From: Dictyostelium discoideum
Taxonomy: Eukaryota
Direction: 5' to 3'
Assembly (NCBI GenBank): GCA_000004695.1
Contig: CH709173.1
Coordinates: 1-4,495, forward strand
DNA: 4,495 nt
Of the stretch, positions 1 to 4,495 are shown one piece after another; within the stretch, counting starts at the first letter, position 1, and each line of letters starts with the position of its first letter. The position numbers were made by a program, and so were the translations under genes. The notes beneath the pieces were generated by a model. That model searched no databases. It was given only the letters and a program-made list of their open reading frames with translations, and had not been told where the DNA came from.

Positions 1-50
1 GATTTTTTTTTTTTTTTTAATTTTTTTTTTTTTTAAAAAAAAATTTTATT
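1..50. repeat. Homopolymer low-complexity tract (T18, T14, A9)
   Basis: Direct reading: gat(t)18aa(t)14(a)9ttttatt. It lies immediately upstream of where similarity of the pseudogene copy to the downstream gene begins. Confidence 0.9.
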
Positions 51-87
51 AACTTACCAGCTATTATTTAATTGGGTATCATTTTAT

Positions 88-767
88 TTTAAAAGAACTG
101 GTGATTGGTTTTGAAAGCATTGATATTATTGATGAAGTTGAAGAAATCTAAAATAATACTTTTTTTGGTTTTTTTTTAGATTAAATTTGCTTTTAAGGGG
201 GGTTTTTCTTCGCTGTGTATGGATTCTATATTTTTAGCAAATTTACCTATCGATGGGCACTTTTTGAGTTACAAATGAAGAGTCAATTTTTTATTTTGAA
301 ATTTATTCAGGTGTTAAATTATTAATTGAAAAAAAAAATTTTTTAGAATATTTAGATTTCTCAAAAGACTATGAGCAGGGGATTTATAAAAATTATAAAT
401 CTGGAGAACAATTTAAAAAAATAAAAAATTCAATTTTATATAAATTTATTTTATTAAGAATATTTATTGACGGAATGAGTCATCAAGGTAGATCAGATTA
501 TACTATAATGGGGGATTTTGAAAATTATGTTGGCCCATTTTTTAAAATATGCCATGCCAACTTAAAAAATGGACTGGAAATAAAATTGTTTTATTTATTG
601 TTCCAAAAGAATGGTTTTACAATATACATCAAACAATTAAAAAATTATTTTCAGCGCAATTTAATAATAAATTAATAATTAAAGATAATAATGGATATGA
701 TTATGAAATTATAACATATGGATTAACAATCACAGCGGCGAAAATCAACACTTTAAAGCACCTTTAA
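88..767 (+). pseudogene. Degenerate partial paralog (pseudogene fragment) of the C-terminal conserved domain of the gene at 2962..>4495
   Basis: Hand translation matches the downstream protein in four segments. (1) 95-150: ELVIGFESIDIIDEVEEI* vs EFLMLGIENSISLKLLEKF. (2) 219-267: MDSIFLANLPIDGHFL vs MDKLFMEDFQIKGETF. (3) 280-534 in one frame: ESIFYFEIYSGVKLLIEKKNFLEYLDFSKDYEQGIYKNYKSGEQFKKIKNSILYKFILLRIFIDGMSHQGRSDYTIMGDFENYVG vs HSIFYFEIKKVLETLLNKKQFFERIDFDTDFETGIYTNYKSGQQFKDLKNKNKNKIVLLRIFTDSMQCQNKKDYTIMLDIENYIG (about 56% identical by eye). (4) 549-767 in a different frame: KIVLFIVPKEWFYNIHQTIKKLFSAQFNNKLIIKDNNGYDYEIITYGLT vs KLLLFVVPNDWLLNFHQTIRALFSSF/GNGFNLIIENEQIDVIPFGLT. The colinear segments are separated by in-frame stops (taa 148-150, tag 235-237, tga 265-267) and a 29-nt net insertion relative to the downstream copy near 530-600. 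Similarity ends at 767, equivalent to about 4160 in the downstream gene. No zinc-finger or N/E-rich region is present upstream. Confidence 0.6.
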
Positions 768-780
768 ATCCAAGTACTCT

Positions 781-960
781 TTTTAATATATATTAATAAG
801 TATACTTAATAAGTAATACTTATTAAGTATACTTAATAAGTATACTTATTAAGTACACTTTATTAAGTATTACTTAATAAGTATACTTATTAAGTATACT
901 TTATAAGTATACTTTATAAGTACTACTTAATAAGTACACTTATTAATATATATTAATAAT
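781..960. repeat. Array of about 11 palindromic decamers AAGT(A/C)(T/A)ACTT with 12-14 bp period, flanked by inverted termini TTAATATATATTAATAAGT(A/G)TACTT
   Basis: AAGTATACTT is its own reverse complement and contains GTATAC. Copies or variants start at about 799, 813, 827, 840, 852, 866, 881, 893, 905, 917 and 932. 783-807 is the reverse complement of 932-956 with one mismatch, so the whole block is roughly self-complementary. Confidence 0.85.
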
Positions 961-1087
961 TAGTTATTATTCTTTTAAATGTTTTATATGGGAATCGAAC
1001 CCGCGACCTCCCTTTTCAGAAGTTCCGCGGATGGAATATTTTAGATGGGAATCGAACCTGTGACCTCCCTTTCCGGAAGTTCCGTTT

Positions 1088-1093
1088 AAAAAA
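1088..1093 (-). terminator. T6 run on the minus strand, 5 nt downstream of the tRNA-like unit: pol III terminator-like
   Basis: Minus strand reads ...TTCGATTCCCATATGCAACA TTTTTT AAACGG. T-runs of 4 or more terminate pol III. The 3' layout (T-loop, 5 nt, 7 nt, 1 nt, T6) mimics a tRNA gene 3' end. Confidence 0.35.
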
Positions 1094-1101
1094 TGTTGCA
1101 T

Positions 1102-1158
1102 ATGGGAATCGAACCCGTGACCTCTTACATACTAAGCTACCATATGAGCTAAATAAGC
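1102..1158 (-). pseudogene. tRNA-like pseudogene or tRNA-derived pol III unit (A-box-like plus B-box; anticodon arm too short)
   Basis: Minus-strand read: GCTTATTTAGCTCATATGGTAGCTTAGTATGTAAGAGGTCACGGGTTCGATTCCCATATG. TAGCTCATATGG resembles the A-box/D-arm (TRGCNNAGNGG), and the B-box follows about 30 nt later. The T-stem has one mismatch (ACGGG/CCCAT). Only about 16 nt lie between the D-arm and T-stem, where about 22 are needed. No 5' acceptor strand is complementary to the 3' side ATGCAAC. Hence not an intact tRNA. Confidence 0.4.
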
Positions 1159-1227
1159 TTTGATTATTTTTCAATATAAATAGCTGAAATATTAATGTAA
1201 AAAAATTAAAAAAAATAATAAAAAAAA

Positions 1228-1357
1228 TGAAACTATAAAACACAAATAAAATGATATGTTTTATTTTTTAATTTAATGTTGTATAAATCTTTGTAAATAC
1301 ACTGAGAAATAATATTCAGAATATTTCTGAAACTATAAAACATAAATAAAATGATAT
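1228..1357 (+). repeat. 30-bp direct repeat pair TGAAACTATAAAACA(C/T)AAATAAAATGATAT at 1228-1257 and 1328-1357 (exactly 100 bp apart, 1 mismatch)
   Basis: Direct comparison of the two copies. A weaker similarity of the following 20-30 nt (tctttgtaaa...gagaaataat vs tctttctgaaaaataat) suggests a diverged 100-bp tandem duplication. Confidence 0.8.
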
Positions 1358-1560
1358 TATATAAAAAATAACATAATCTTTCTGAAAAATAATTTTTTTT
1401 TTTTTTTTATTTTTTTTATTTTTATTTTTTTAGTAATTGTTGACTAAAACCTATAAATATTTTCATTTATGTAACTACTGTATTCTAAACTTTACTACAA
1501 TTATATATTTGATATGTGTTTATTATTAAATTACCATTATAAATTGTAAAAAATTACTTT

Positions 1561-1670
1561 TTTAATTTTTTTTTTTTTTTTTACCTTTTTTTTTTATCTT
1601 TAATTTTTTTTTTTCTTTTTTTTTACCTTTTTTTTTATCTTTTTTTTTTACTTTTTTTTTTTTTCCAAAA
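1561..1670. repeat. T-rich simple repeat, (T)9-14 interrupted periodically by ACC / ATC / AA
   Basis: ...t14 acc t10 atc ttt aa t12 c t9 acc t9 atc t10 ac t14 cc: about 20-bp periodic interruption of poly(T). Confidence 0.85.
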
Positions 1671-1741
1671 TATTATTGATACATTTGTTGTTAAAATACA
1701 TTGATATTATTAAAAAAATTTAAATATTTTTATGTGTGATG

Positions 1742-1775
1742 AAAAAAAATCAAAAAAAAAAAAAAAAAAAAAAAA
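1742..1775. repeat. poly(A) tract (A8 T C A24)
   Basis: Direct reading; A24 uninterrupted at 1752-1775. Confidence 0.9.
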
Positions 1776-1980
1776 TTTAGGAATTTTTTTTTAACACAAA
1801 AAAAAAATAAAAAATTTTGTAATTTTTTTTTTTTTTAACGAAAAAAATAATATAATAAAATAACAATATAAATAATAATTTAGATAAATAATTGAAATAA
1901 AATAAATAATATGAACACAAGAATAAAAATTTAAATAAAAACAAATATGCTTTATTCACAGCAAAGAAAAATGCACCTTT

Positions 1981-2040
1981 AAAGCCAATTTAAAGCAAAT
2001 ACAATTTAAATTGGCTTTAAATTGGCTTTAAATTTGCTTT
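1981..2040. repeat. Inverted repeat built from mirrored 11-bp units: AAAGCCAATTT-AAAGCAAAT | ACAATTT | AAATTGGCTTT-AAATTGGCTTT-AAATTTGCTTT
   Basis: AAATTGGCTTT (2008-2018, 2019-2029) is the reverse complement of AAAGCCAATTT (1981-1991). AAATTTGCTTT (2030-2040) is the reverse complement of AAAGCAAATTT, matching 1992-2000 with a small insertion. A hairpin or cruciform with tandemly repeated arms can form. Confidence 0.8.
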
Positions 2041-2100
2041 TTAAAAAGGTAATTTTAAAGATATTTTTAAGGTCATTTAAAATTACATTAAAAATGACCT

Positions 2101-2161
2101 TTTAAATTTATTATAAAGCGGTTTTTAAATAATGTTTTAATCACTTTATAATAAATTTAAA
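2101..2161. repeat. Perfect 18-bp inverted repeat TTTAAATTTATTATAAAG ... CTTTATAATAAATTTAAA with a 25-bp spacer
   Basis: 2101-2118 is the exact reverse complement of 2144-2161. Adjacent smaller inverted repeats: AAGGTCATTT 2069-2078 / AAATGACCTT 2092-2101; GTAATTTT 2049-2056 / AAAATTAC 2079-2086; near-palindrome GTAATTTAAAATTAC 2177-2191. Confidence 0.9.
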
Positions 2162-2237
2162 AAAGTTATTTTTAATGTAATTTAAAATTACTTATTAATC
2201 CTTTTTTAAGCTTTTATTAATTATATTTTTTAAAATA

Positions 2238-2270
2238 CATTTTAAATGCATTTTAAATACATTTCAAATC
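2238..2270 (+). repeat. 3 x 11-bp tandem repeat CATTTTAAAT(G/A) / CATTTCAAATC
   Basis: cattttaaatg cattttaaata catttcaaatc read directly. Confidence 0.7.
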
Positions 2271-2302
2271 AATTTTTACACTATTTATTTCAAATTTATT
2301 AT

Positions 2303-2375
2303 AAAAAAAAAAAAAAATAAGAAAATAAAAAAAAAAAAAAAAAAATTAAGAAAATTAAAAAAAAAAAAAAACTAA
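2303..2375. repeat. A-rich low complexity with periodic TAAGAAAAT / TTAAGAAAATT insertions
   Basis: a15 taagaaaat a20 ttaagaaaatt a14 ct a5. Confidence 0.85.
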
Positions 2376-2753
2376 AAAGATAACCAAATTAATTTTAATT
2401 CTTTATTTATTTGTTCCAGTGGCAATTGAATTCTATTATTATTATTTTTATTAATTAATAATAAATAAGTGTTTCAGTTGCCTTGGGTTTTATTTTATGT
2501 TATTTTAAATTTTACTTCTCATTTCAAAAAGCGAAAAATATCAAAAAAAAAAAAAAAAAAAAAATTTAATTATTTGTTTTGCATATTTATATTATAAGTA
2601 TAAACATACATATAAAAAAAGATTTTTTATTTTTTATTTTTTATAATTAATAAACAATTAACGAGTGCACAGGTATATTATTGCATTAGTGTAGTTTTAC
2701 AATAAATTGGGCAGATTTTATAGTTTTTTTTTTTTTTATTTTAAAAAGAAAAA

Positions 2754-2830
2754 GGTATAGACAGGGTCATAGGTTCCCCGTCATTTTTTGAAAATGGGGT
2801 ATATCCCTCTAAATATAAAATTTTAAGTAC
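2754..2830 (+). promoter_or_regulatory. GC-containing island with imperfect palindrome CCCCGTCATTTTTTGAAAATGGGG (2776-2799) and TATA-like ATATAAAA (2813-2820); candidate promoter/enhancer of the gene at 2962
   Basis: It is the only G/C-bearing segment in about 500 bp of >90% AT sequence. It lies about 130-210 bp upstream of an ATG in AAAATG context, and TATA-like elements at 2813-2820 and 2851-2857 follow it. No TSS data are available, so this is positional inference. Confidence 0.3.
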
Positions 2831-2961
2831 TAAATCATATATCTACTTGCTATAATGCTAAAATTTGAATAAAATGAAAAAAAAAAAAAAAAAAAAAACG
2901 TAAAAACTCGAGGAAAAAAAAAAAAAAAAATATTATTTTTAATTTCCAGCCAGCAAACAAA

Positions 2962-4095
2962 ATGAATTTAAATAACATATCATGCATTAATTGCAGAGAA
3001 AAATTAAAGAATTTTAAAAATATTATTATTCATTATATTATGCATAAAAATATATGTCCATTTTGTCTTGCATATTACCGTTCTTATAAACAATTTTATG
3101 ATGTAAATGGACATTTCAACACCAAAAAATGTAAAAATGAACAAAATAAAATTATTACAAATAATCAAAAAAGAGATATCTTTTATAAAAAATTAATGGA
3201 TATTACTGGTGAAAAAATAAAATATCCAACAAATGATCCAGATGACCCATGTAAACATTTATGTAACCAAAACCAAGATGAAATTTTTTATCAAGAAAAT
3301 AATGAAAATAATGAAAATAATCAAACAATTGATAATGTAGAAAATCATGATATAATTGGGTTGGTACATAGTGAAGATGAAAACAATGAAATTAGAATAG
3401 ATGAAAATGAAGCAAACATTAATAATGAAAATAATGAAAATAATGAAAATGAAAATGCTCAAAACGAACCAATAAATAATAATCTAAATAATAATTTAGA
3501 TAATGAAAAATCAAAAAAAAAATTAAATGAGACTGAAATTGAATTTTTAATGTTGGGAATTGAAAACTCAATAAGTTTAAAGCTACTTGAAAAATTTAAA
3601 AGTTTTATTGACAAAAATAAAACCAATTTAAATCAAATAAGATACACACCTCAATATATGGATAAATTATTTATGGAAGATTTTCAAATAAAAGGAGAAA
3701 CATTTATAAATAAAAATTATGATCACTCAATTTTTTATTTTGAAATTAAAAAAGTATTAGAAACTTTATTAAATAAAAAGCAATTTTTTGAAAGAATAGA
3801 TTTTGATACAGATTTTGAAACTGGAATTTATACAAATTATAAAAGTGGTCAACAATTTAAAGATTTAAAAAATAAAAATAAAAATAAAATTGTATTACTT
3901 AGAATATTCACTGATAGTATGCAGTGTCAAAACAAGAAAGATTATACTATAATGCTGGATATAGAAAATTATATTGGAAATGAATTTAAAAATAATAAAT
4001 TATTATTATTTGTAGTACCAAATGATTGGTTACTTAATTTTCATCAAACAATTAGGGCATTGTTTTCATCTTTTTTGGTAATGGCTTTAATTTAA
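2962..4095 (+). CDS. Protein with two N-terminal C2H2-type zinc fingers, an N/E-rich low-complexity linker and a conserved C-terminal domain of unknown function (possible transposase-like or domesticated element protein); segment upstream of a -1 frame break
   Basis: 377-codon ORF from the track. ATG at 2962 in AAAATGAAT context, preceded by an in-frame TAA. Residues 8-28: C-x2-C-x12-H-x3-H with a hydrophobic C-x3-L-x5-I-x2-H pattern (classic C2H2). Residues 32-57: C-x2-C-x15-H-x5-C. Residues about 112-186 are an N/E repeat (NNENNENNE...). Residues about 190-377 are conserved with the upstream pseudogene copy. AT3-biased codon usage is consistent with the surrounding genome. Confidence 0.75.
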   Translation: MNLNNISCINCREKLKNFKNIIIHYIMHKNICPFCLAYYRSYKQFYDVNGHFNTKKCKNEQNKIITNNQKRDIFYKKLMDITGEKIKYPTNDPDDPCKHLCNQNQDEIFYQENNENNENNQTIDNVENHDIIGLVHSEDENNEIRIDENEANINNENNENNENENAQNEPINNNLNNNLDNEKSKKKLNETEIEFLMLGIENSISLKLLEKFKSFIDKNKTNLNQIRYTPQYMDKLFMEDFQIKGETFINKNYDHSIFYFEIKKVLETLLNKKQFFERIDFDTDFETGIYTNYKSGQQFKDLKNKNKNKIVLLRIFTDSMQCQNKKDYTIMLDIENYIGNEFKNNKLLLFVVPNDWLLNFHQTIRALFSSFLVMALI

Positions 4096-4495
4096 TTATT
4101 GAAAATGAACAAATAGATGTTATACCGTTTGGACTGACAATGGATATTCCAGAATTTAGAGCATCGTGTAAACTTAATGGACATAATTCAAATGAATATG
4201 CATGTCACACATGTGACAAACCAAGAGATGGTTTATTTATTTGCCATTCAGGTACATTAACAAAACAAGAAGATATTACAAATTTTCACTCCACCAAACC
4301 AAATTATGCTGAATTAAATGCTGATATAGAATTAAAAAAAATATGGGAAAAAAAAGCAAAAGATATTGGTATCAAAGGTGTGGGCAGAGGGTGGGTCGAA
4401 CCTTTGTCCATTAATTATTTAAAAACACAACCAGACATATTACATAATATTTTATTAGGTGTCGCACAAAGATGTTTATATTACAATTTTGATAA
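4056..4495 (+). CDS. Continuation of the same gene in the -1 frame (3' partial, open to the window end)
   Basis: The frame with codons starting at multiples of 3 is open from 4056 to 4495. Its hand translation begins GIVFIFFGNGFNLIIENEQIDVIPFGLTMDIPEFRASCKLNGHNSNEYACHTCDKPRDGLFICHSG... and continues VGRGWVEPLSINYLKTQPDILHNILLGVAQRCLYYNFD. Its start (FGNGFNLII...IPFGLT) is colinear with the upstream paralog (FNNKLII...ITYGLT). One extra T in the run 4071-4076 would fuse it to the 2962 ORF. Confidence 0.55.

Follow-up and report, generated by a model that had tools for sequence, protein, structure and literature searches.

The window analyzed here is a 4,495-nucleotide stretch of Dictyostelium discoideum DNA (GenBank assembly GCA_000004695.1, contig CH709173.1, positions 1 to 4,495 of the forward strand), and all coordinates given below without a locus name refer to it. 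Its composition is 78–92% A+T with long homopolymer runs, and it contains a dense cluster of perfect inverted repeats at 1978–2200. A sharp transposon terminus (CACAGCAAAGAAAAATGCACCTTTAAAGC) lies at 1957, 21 bp before the start of this cluster, and on the plus strand downstream lies ORF1 (open reading frame 1; 2962..4495), a predicted transposase gene with an N-terminal C2H2 and C2HC zinc-finger region that runs past the window end. We consider it likely that the hairpin cluster corresponds to the subterminal repeat region at the left end of a D. discoideum cut-and-paste DNA transposon ~5 kb long, and this degree of confidence is meant for the explanation as a whole, i.e., a transposon end, of the DDT family, with arrays of protein-binding sites.

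The inverted repeats were collected as all maximal perfect pairs within 1900–2300. The original prediction, made from the sequence letters alone, had described a dense cluster of such repeats at 1978–2200; every repeat that it named was found, and the description proved to be, if anything, an understatement. The longest are two perfect 19-bp pairs, one at 1978–1996 / 2014–2032 with a loop of 17 and the other at 2100–2118 / 2144–2162 with a 25-nt loop. The latter had been read as an 18/18 stem at 2101–2161, which was right as to its perfection and its loop but one base pair short in its arms. It is surrounded by a perfect 16-bp pair (2080–2095 / 2168–2183), and shorter perfect pairs of 11 bp (2049–2059 / 2076–2086) and 10 bp (2069–2078 / 2092–2101) lie alongside. 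The minimum-free-energy (MFE) DNA fold resolves these repeats into two large palindromes, neither of which is assigned to a strand: P1, folded over approximately 1973–2037 and with its repeat units spanning 1978–2032, and P2, which covers 143 nt at 2049–2191 and is built from 11-bp outer arms (2049–2059 / 2181–2191), the 16-bp middle stem and the 19-bp inner stem. The motif GTAATTTT occurs at 2049 and its partner AAAATTAC at both 2079 and 2184, so that the proposed nesting of this pair around AAGGTCATTT/AAATGACCTT holds for the 2184 copy, the pairing that the MFE fold uses, but not for the 2079 copy, with which GTAATTTT interleaves with the 10-bp AAGGTCATTT/AAATGACCTT pair. The P1 stem also has a register-shifted alternative pairing of 17 bp, because its units are an 11-bp tandem.

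It is clear that chance does not account for the cluster. Of 2000 dinucleotide-preserving shuffles of 1978–2200, two contained a perfect stem as long as 19 bp or longer, and the real region has two such stems; at least seven stems of at least 10 bp arose in 15 shuffles, and the observed total of stem bases was reached by seven. The MFE of 1978–2200 is −68.8 compared with −28.5 ± 3.7 for shuffled sequence (z = −10.8), while the DNA fold of 1957–2200 gives −54.1 against −25.0 ± 3.1 kcal/mol (z = −9.5), and none of 200 shuffles folded equally well. As controls, four further 250-bp stretches of non-coding, AT-rich sequence from this window had z-scores of −0.5, +0.3, +0.6, and −2.7. The claim that such perfect stems are unlikely by chance is thus borne out, and of the two outcomes that had been named in advance as counting against the prediction, the shuffles do not match the repeat density and the region is not single-copy.

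Comparison of the window with the fetched loci by BLASTN shows that the region is multi-copy, with homology that begins at 1957. Window positions 1957–4405 match L001 9007–11434 with 97.8% identity, 1951–2365 and 2535–4495 match L002 at 87–90%, and many more matches of 70–77%, on both strands, all begin at approximately 1957. When 25 copies were extracted with 60 bp of flank, all 25 opened with CACAGC(A/G)A(A/T)GAAAA..CACCTTTAAA, and their upstream flanks were unrelated. A pattern scan of the window and five fetched loci returned 41 ends of the CACAGC...GCTGTG type. The terminus and terminal-repeat core CACAGCAAAGAAAAATGCACCTTTAAAGC (1957..1985, plus strand), represented in these 25 copies and 41 ends and in four end subtypes, also holds the outermost reverse-orientation copy of an AAGGTG-type unit (CACCTTTAAA).

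Target-site duplications (TSDs), for which the original prediction had suggested looking, are present at the element ends and are 2 bp long. All 10 adjacent plus/minus end pairs less than 1.2 kb apart have identical 2-bp flanks (AT, TT, TA, AG), for which the chance expectation is ~0.096 per pair, and full-length end pairs also agree (TG in L002, AA in L004, TC in L005). A 3-bp duplication (TAT) considered at one L003 insertion was reduced to 2 bp, since the 10 pairs agree on that length. The L003 copy of the window's element holds three nested 759–760-bp insertions whose empty sites can be read from the window: the first, a 759-bp relative, duplicated AT at 2087..2088, a second 759-bp relative duplicated TT at 2188..2189 (neither site being stranded), and the third duplicated AT at 2589–2590. 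Once each of the three insertions is taken out together with one copy of its duplication, L003 and window 1957–2988 are 98.2% identical. The nested arrangement occupies L003 6719–10030, with two of the three non-autonomous relatives inside the hairpin region, and it is in this limited sense alone that the idea of a recombination hotspot can be retained.

A complete autonomous copy is found at L002 9218–14251, which is 5034 bp long with the TSD TG, and carries ORF1 (814 aa), a second open reading frame (ORF2) of ~275 aa, and an inverted right end whose terminal 30 bp and arrays of units are shared with the left end. We distinguish four end subtypes: A is the window's left end, B and C are found at either end of a ~760-bp non-autonomous element, as at L003 6851–7609, and D is the right end of the autonomous element, with the terminal ~30 bp common to all four. 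The suggestion that the hairpins are terminal hairpins of a nonautonomous, MITE-like element (miniature inverted-repeat transposable element) was therefore correct in placing them at the end of a DNA element but not in its choice of element, because the cluster lies inside a ~5-kb element and the same copy carries a (frameshifted) transposase ORF downstream; the ~760-bp derivatives are separate copies elsewhere, not around the hairpin cluster. P2 as an inserted mini-MITE was likewise set aside, as it has neither CACAG ends nor a duplication. An element bounded by 1.1-kb terminal inverted repeats was at one point considered for L001, but the two arms there are the 5' fragments of two copies that flank an insertion of another subtype at window-equivalent position 4405.

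The whole left subterminal repeat region comprises 334 bp (1957..2290, plus strand) of degenerate ~11–12-bp units, each consisting of a G/C-containing 4–5-mer followed by T3–5A3–5. The period is ~11.5 bp, with peaks in the G/C autocorrelation at lags of 11–12, 22–23, and 35 that were not found in two control regions, and Tandem Repeats Finder (TRF) likewise reports period-11/12 arrays in 1957..2290. TTTAAA occurs 15 times in this region compared with 36 times over the whole window. Two units of 10–11 bp account for most of the stems described above. Four exact copies of TTTAAAGCNAA occur in the window, every one inside P1, in the order + + − − (at 1978 and 1989 in forward and at 2011 and 2022 in reverse orientation). 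For AAGGTNATTT, the main subterminal unit, the three exact matches all lie inside 2046–2183, and six of its 10 matches at one mismatch lie there too, in the order + + − − + +; within 2046..2101, an array with no strand of its own, its forward copies stand at 2046 and 2069 and its reverse copies at 2080 and 2092, an order that produces the 11-bp and 10-bp inverted repeats. The palindromes thus arise because both units are laid out in forward-forward-reverse-reverse blocks, to which the self-complementary TTTAAA core adds. Farther in, the inner part of the array is an 11-bp tandem repeat of TTTTAAATACA in ~4 copies (2229..2276, plus strand). To the extent that the original prediction took the hairpins for terminal repeats, it has to be revised, as the cluster consists of subterminal arrays of short bidirectional units and not of a terminal inverted repeat.

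The other end subtypes are organized in a comparable manner. The AAGGTNATTT unit, in the form of the 12-mer AAAGGT(G/A/C)ATTTT, stands in tandem in B and D ends, and in C ends three direct copies and three inverted ones together make up a perfect palindrome of 36 bp, located about equally far from the end. Across 32 unique ends, TTTTAAGG/TTTAAGGT are the commonest of the enriched 8-mers. An excess of folding, with z between −5 and −10, is seen in nine of 11 representative ends and in all four subtypes.

Whether it is the pairing or the sequence of these arms that is maintained was considered using an alignment of eight left ends of type A, to which D. discoideum contributed five and D. cf. discoideum three (80–99% identical). 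The P2 arms are kept in all eight copies. In the three long stems 94.4% of cells are paired and 13 pairs depart by mismatch alone, with no compensatory double change in the 54 long-stem pairs of the eight copies, a result that does not exceed the shuffle control. The two short stems have double changes in two of 18 pairs, including a CG to UA change in two D. cf. discoideum copies, which is a weak signal. Variable columns make up 18 of 108 in the arms and 71 of 192 elsewhere (loops and spacers), for a Fisher p of 2 × 10−4 that is inflated because the copies are related. The arm sequences are constrained, and a constraint on pairing is not shown by these data. A search of Rfam at a permissive E-value gave a best score of 29 bits against a gathering score of 68, equal on both strands, with miRNA-shaped (microRNA-shaped) sub-threshold matches only, and a tRNA gene scan with ARAGORN found none. 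The proposal of a structured noncoding RNA is accordingly not sustained, with Rfam scores far below threshold and long stems that lack compensatory change in the eight copies.

The coding part of the element gives an independent view of its identity. In the window, loss of 1 bp near 4080 means that the ORF at 2962–4095 continues in another frame, as far as the end of the window; at 4071–4090 a T-run is 1 bp shorter than in other copies (TTTTATTGG becomes TTTTTTGG), shifting the transposase frame, and this copy is either a pseudogene or affected by a homopolymer error in the assembly. A copy without this frameshift is found, for example, at L004 9941–12496. The product of 2962–4495 is 95% identical to D. 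discoideum hypothetical proteins and has 35 relatives in several strains, which form two subfamilies ~44% identical to each other. Several of the family's “hypothetical proteins” are fusions or truncations resulting from nested insertions, with P0001, for instance, cut at window-equivalent position 4405. By direct inspection, the N-terminus of ORF1 contains C-x2-C-x12-H-x4-H followed by C-x2-C-x14-H-x6-C, i.e., two zinc fingers that are sub-threshold in Pfam. Pfam searches with the window ORF, eight full-length relatives, ORF2, and the zinc-finger region returned nothing above threshold, and AlphaFold2 applied to a 14-sequence family alignment gave a mean predicted local distance difference test score (pLDDT) of 39, too poor to use.

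More distant relationships emerged from an HMMER (phmmer) search of 1.8 billion representatives using P0006, an intact 831-aa copy from L004. Of its 46 matches, ~28 are distant, with E-values of 1e-7 to 1e-3 over residues ~450–720. The Pfam domain Transposase_21 (tnp2, PF02992) is at or above its cut-off in two of 10 distant matches scanned (P0062 and P0066), and DUF4218 reaches 22.9 bits, below its cut-off of 27, in P0060; each domain adjoins the stretch matched by P0006. Alignment of the DDT family (A1) to nine of the distant matches (A2) with hhalign gives a probability of 99.5% and an E-value of 3e-22 over 462 columns, reaching upstream into the tnp2 region, an E-value that is optimistic because A2 was picked from the query's own matches. 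Ten of the 12 invariant A2 columns (two D, C-x2-C, H, G, H-x3-H, E, and one L) are identical in P0006, in which D310, D387, C407-x2-C410, LH, H-LLL-H (~611–615), and E636 compare with D280, D366, C385, C388, H474, H607, H611, and E631 of A2, and across the DDT family both D residues are invariant and both C residues nearly so. These comparisons show that ORF1 encodes a DDE transposase with remote homology to the CACTA/TNP2-type (CMC/CMCT) enzymes.

This assignment agrees with what defines the CMC/CMCT (CACTA-Mirage-Chapaev-Transib) group. The CMCT clade is described as having 5'-CA..TG-3' termini, TSDs of 2–5 bp, and C(2)C and H(3–4)H motifs (PMC12730594), with the catalytic residue pattern of CMC/CMCT enzymes defined in the same work and in PMC4079192. 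The Dictyostelium element shows homology to a TNP2/Transposase_21-type DDE transposase, the defining residue pattern (PMC12730594; PMC4079192), termini of the form 5'-CA(C)...(G)TG-3' (CACAGC...GCTGTG in 41 ends), and 2-bp TSDs in 10 of 10 pairs, three of them confirmed by empty sites. The strict CACTA/En-Spm definition fits less well: direct and inverted subterminal motifs are present at both ends, whereas the termini carry CACAG instead of the CACTA pentamer and the TSD is 2 bp instead of 3 bp.

The ends of CACTA elements carry reiterated subterminal motifs in direct and inverted orientation, capable of forming stem-loops and divided into GC-rich and AT-rich halves; TNPA-like proteins bind these motifs, which transposition requires in cis, with a TNP2-type transposase acting at the termini (PMC2613891). 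The resemblance to CACTA elements such as En/Spm, Tam1, and Tgm is considerable, as the present termini also begin with CAC, a TNP2-like transposase is accompanied by a second ORF, the ends are asymmetric, the first few hundred bp contain reiterated 10–20-bp bidirectional motifs with GC-containing and AT-rich halves, and the ends are kept by non-autonomous derivatives (PMC2613891). In addition to terminal pentamer and TSD, the element differs from CACTA elements in its unrelated unit sequence, in that its ORFs have no direct Pfam Transposase_21 match, and in that ORF2 has no similarity to TNPA or TNP1.

By analogy, the units probably serve as multiple binding sites for a DNA-binding protein that the element encodes, for which the C2H2/C2HC zinc-finger N-terminus of ORF1 and the ~275-aa ORF2 product are the candidates. 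Pairs of units placed head to head would serve as dimer sites, and binding at both ends would join them, letting the transposase cut at the CACAG termini; the model for such end-joining is the action of TNPA and TNPD at the 12-bp subterminal motifs of maize En/Spm. Hairpin or cruciform formation would then be a by-product and not the working form. The unit arrays are retained at both ends and in the ~760-bp derivatives. Several observations weigh against this account. The protein-binding step is inferred by analogy with CACTA elements, and a Pfam DNA-binding domain above threshold is absent from both ORF1 and ORF2. The 19-bp arm TTTTAAATTTATTATAAAG is not an evident copy of either TTTAAAGCNAA or AAGGTNATTT, and therefore not every palindrome reduces to the two units. 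Arm conservation without compensation fits a sequence motif yet is compatible with selection on pairing as well, because the copies are just 80–99% identical. Lastly, we infer the DDT name from context, size, nesting, the ~760-bp derivative, and tRNA-like motifs.

It is also important to consider that the hairpins themselves might be what matters. One such possibility is that transcripts of the element, or others reading through the region, fold into P1 and P2 and are processed by the Dicer-like protein DrnB to miRNA-like or small interfering RNAs that silence the family. The sizes are those of precursor miRNA-like hairpins, one having a 17-nt loop on a stem of 19 bp and the other measuring ~104 nt, with 35 bases paired; DNA transposons are reported to yield small RNAs at low frequency (PMC2175303), and the short AAGGTCATTT/AAATGACCTT pair is kept by one CG-to-UA double change. 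A precedent exists in the multi-copy miRNA loci derived from the D. discoideum DNA transposon thug-S (PMC4894637; PMC6161686), which share with the present region their host, their multi-copy DNA-transposon nature, and the potential to form hairpins; unlike it, they lie in the element's intron and have small-RNA reads (PMC4894637; PMC6161686), and the region here has neither an Rfam family match nor covariation in its long stems. We regard this explanation as quite improbable, given that diverged copies simply gather mismatches in the long stems with no compensatory change, that Rfam scores are far below threshold and the same on both strands, that the stems are nearly pure A-T, and that a promoter-like T-run for ORF1 (motif according to PMC6161686) likely lies downstream, at ~2724–2742, because of which the hairpin region is probably outside the ORF1 mRNA. 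Still less probable, in our estimation, is that extruded P1 and P2 cruciforms or single-strand hairpins are recognized as a DNA-structure signal in transposition or replication, with pairing under selection. The excess of folding in all four subtypes despite differing palindrome sequence and position would be expected from such a signal, as would arms less variable than loops and the two long perfect stems that are intact in D. discoideum copies; however, two ends of the same family, C2 and one D, have a weak fold excess (z of −1.3 and −2.6), the 19-bp arms of D. cf. discoideum copies carry uncompensated mismatches, and the right end of the autonomous element has mainly direct tandem units.

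The remaining explanation is that quasi-palindromic ~11-bp arrays simply yield palindromes by template switching or slippage, the hairpins being functionless beyond the terminal ~30 bp. This neutral origin agrees with the self-complementary TTTAAA core of the units, with palindromes that differ among subtypes at similar distances from the end, with a variable unit copy number (one 11-bp unit, for example, is absent from L002, L004, and L005), and with the lack of covariation in the long stems. We nonetheless find it unlikely, as the arms are significantly less variable than neighboring columns, the ~760-bp non-autonomous derivatives retain arrays at both ends, and subterminal motifs are cis-requirements in CACTA relatives (PMC2613891). 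In sum, the hairpin-RNA and cruciform explanations lack positive evidence, and the neutral one is opposed by arm conservation and array retention.

With regard to the family, we are highly confident that the element is one of the catalogued DDT transposons, and it is probably DDT-A. DDT-A, DDT-B, and DDT-S are the Dictyostelium DNA transposons of Glockner et al. (2001), as cited in later work (PMC5633606; PMC2665215; PMC9012585), and the D. discoideum DNA-transposon families Tdd, DDT, and thug amount to 0.5%, 0.9%, and 0.1% of the genome (PMC5633606). DDT accounts for ~20% of centromeres and is nested within copies of itself (PMC2665215), and DDT-B, with a consensus length of 5471 bp, includes a tRNA-like A/B-box motif by which TRE5-A is attracted (PMC9012585). 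The present element has the same host, is multi-copy and self-nesting, and resides in centromere-type clusters with DIRS-1 and skipper (PMC2665215); the transposase loci are transposon clusters whose neighbors carry reverse transcriptase, integrase, and tyrosine-recombinase domains (DIRS/skipper-type). Its autonomous size of ~5.0–5.6 kb compares with 5471 bp for DDT-B, it has a ~760-bp non-autonomous derivative, and related ends contain tRNA-like A/B-box sequences as reported for DDT-B (PMC9012585), with B-boxes found 190–270 bp inside C-type ends (L001, L003, L005) as well as in the window's 57-bp repeats. Those repeats lie at 977–1124 (a 57-bp unit in 2.6 copies, resembling a tRNA 3' half on the minus strand with the B-box GGTTCGATTCCCA), where ARAGORN finds no tRNA gene. 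Identification as thug-S is unlikely, thug being rarer in the genome than DDT, which is the centromere-enriched family (PMC5633606; PMC2665215). A review states that DDT transposases resemble no known transposase (PMC5633606), in contrast to the remote CACTA/TNP2-type link found here. As a kind of feature it is thus already known, and almost certainly by name as well; the CACTA/TNP2-type link and the 2-bp duplication may be new to the literature, and Repbase could already record the link.

A further and more tentative proposal, which we would hold to be possible but doubtful, is that DDT is an amoebozoan branch of the CACTA/Mirage/Chapaev type with 2-bp TSDs whose arrays are both binding sites and preferred landing pads. 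Mirage, which like Chapaev and ESTA belongs to the CMC/CMCT clade with short TSDs, makes 2-bp TSDs. A transposase or accessory protein tethered to resident arrays would steer insertions there, a form of self-homing. In the fetched loci, ~5 of ~18 insertion events fall within the first 300 bp of another end, with two inside the hairpin region of another copy, and end regions constitute ~8.5% of the fetched-locus sequence. This pattern suggests self-targeting to the subterminal arrays, and self-homing, if true, would account for the pile-up of DDT in its own kind at centromeres.

Other features of the window and of related loci reflect the same kind of environment. The minus-strand right terminus of another small element of the family (...TTCTTCGCTGTG) lies at 195..217, where the element is inserted into a second-subfamily transposase pseudogene (218–767) that is frameshifted and degenerate, related to P0018, and 44% identical to the main ORF. 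At 772–959 a 13-bp quasi-palindromic unit, TATACTTAATAAG, is repeated in tandem in ~13 copies (TRF score 213–233); the array includes 31-bp perfect inverted repeats and recurs in L003, where it flanks an insertion of a small element (20737/21496). In D. cf. discoideum, L004 has one plus and two minus D-type ends, at 6776, 14558, and 14650, with reverse-complementary flanks TTACCTTCTGTT / AACAGAAGGTAA, which therefore indicate an inverted duplication around the element. Tc1/pogo-type DDE_1 or DDE_3 genes adjoin DDT copies of the same species at L004 13919–15885 and L007 3070–4910, and presumably belong to another family of DNA transposons that shares these clusters. At the C-terminus of P0003 and at L003 ~14300–14552, gene models run from transposon ORFs into the right subterminal array, and in public gene models the 12-bp repeats appear, once translated, as repeated KGHFKGNF peptides.

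The striking hairpin cluster is therefore a transposon end and an ordinary feature of one, neither a new RNA nor a new kind of element. Gene models that translate such repeats and fuse transposon ORFs inflate the count of “hypothetical proteins.” For the annotation of Dictyostelium genomes, the analysis provides exact element ends, CACAG...CTGTG with a 2-bp duplication, and a remote yet consistent link between the DDT transposase and the CACTA/TNP2-type enzymes.

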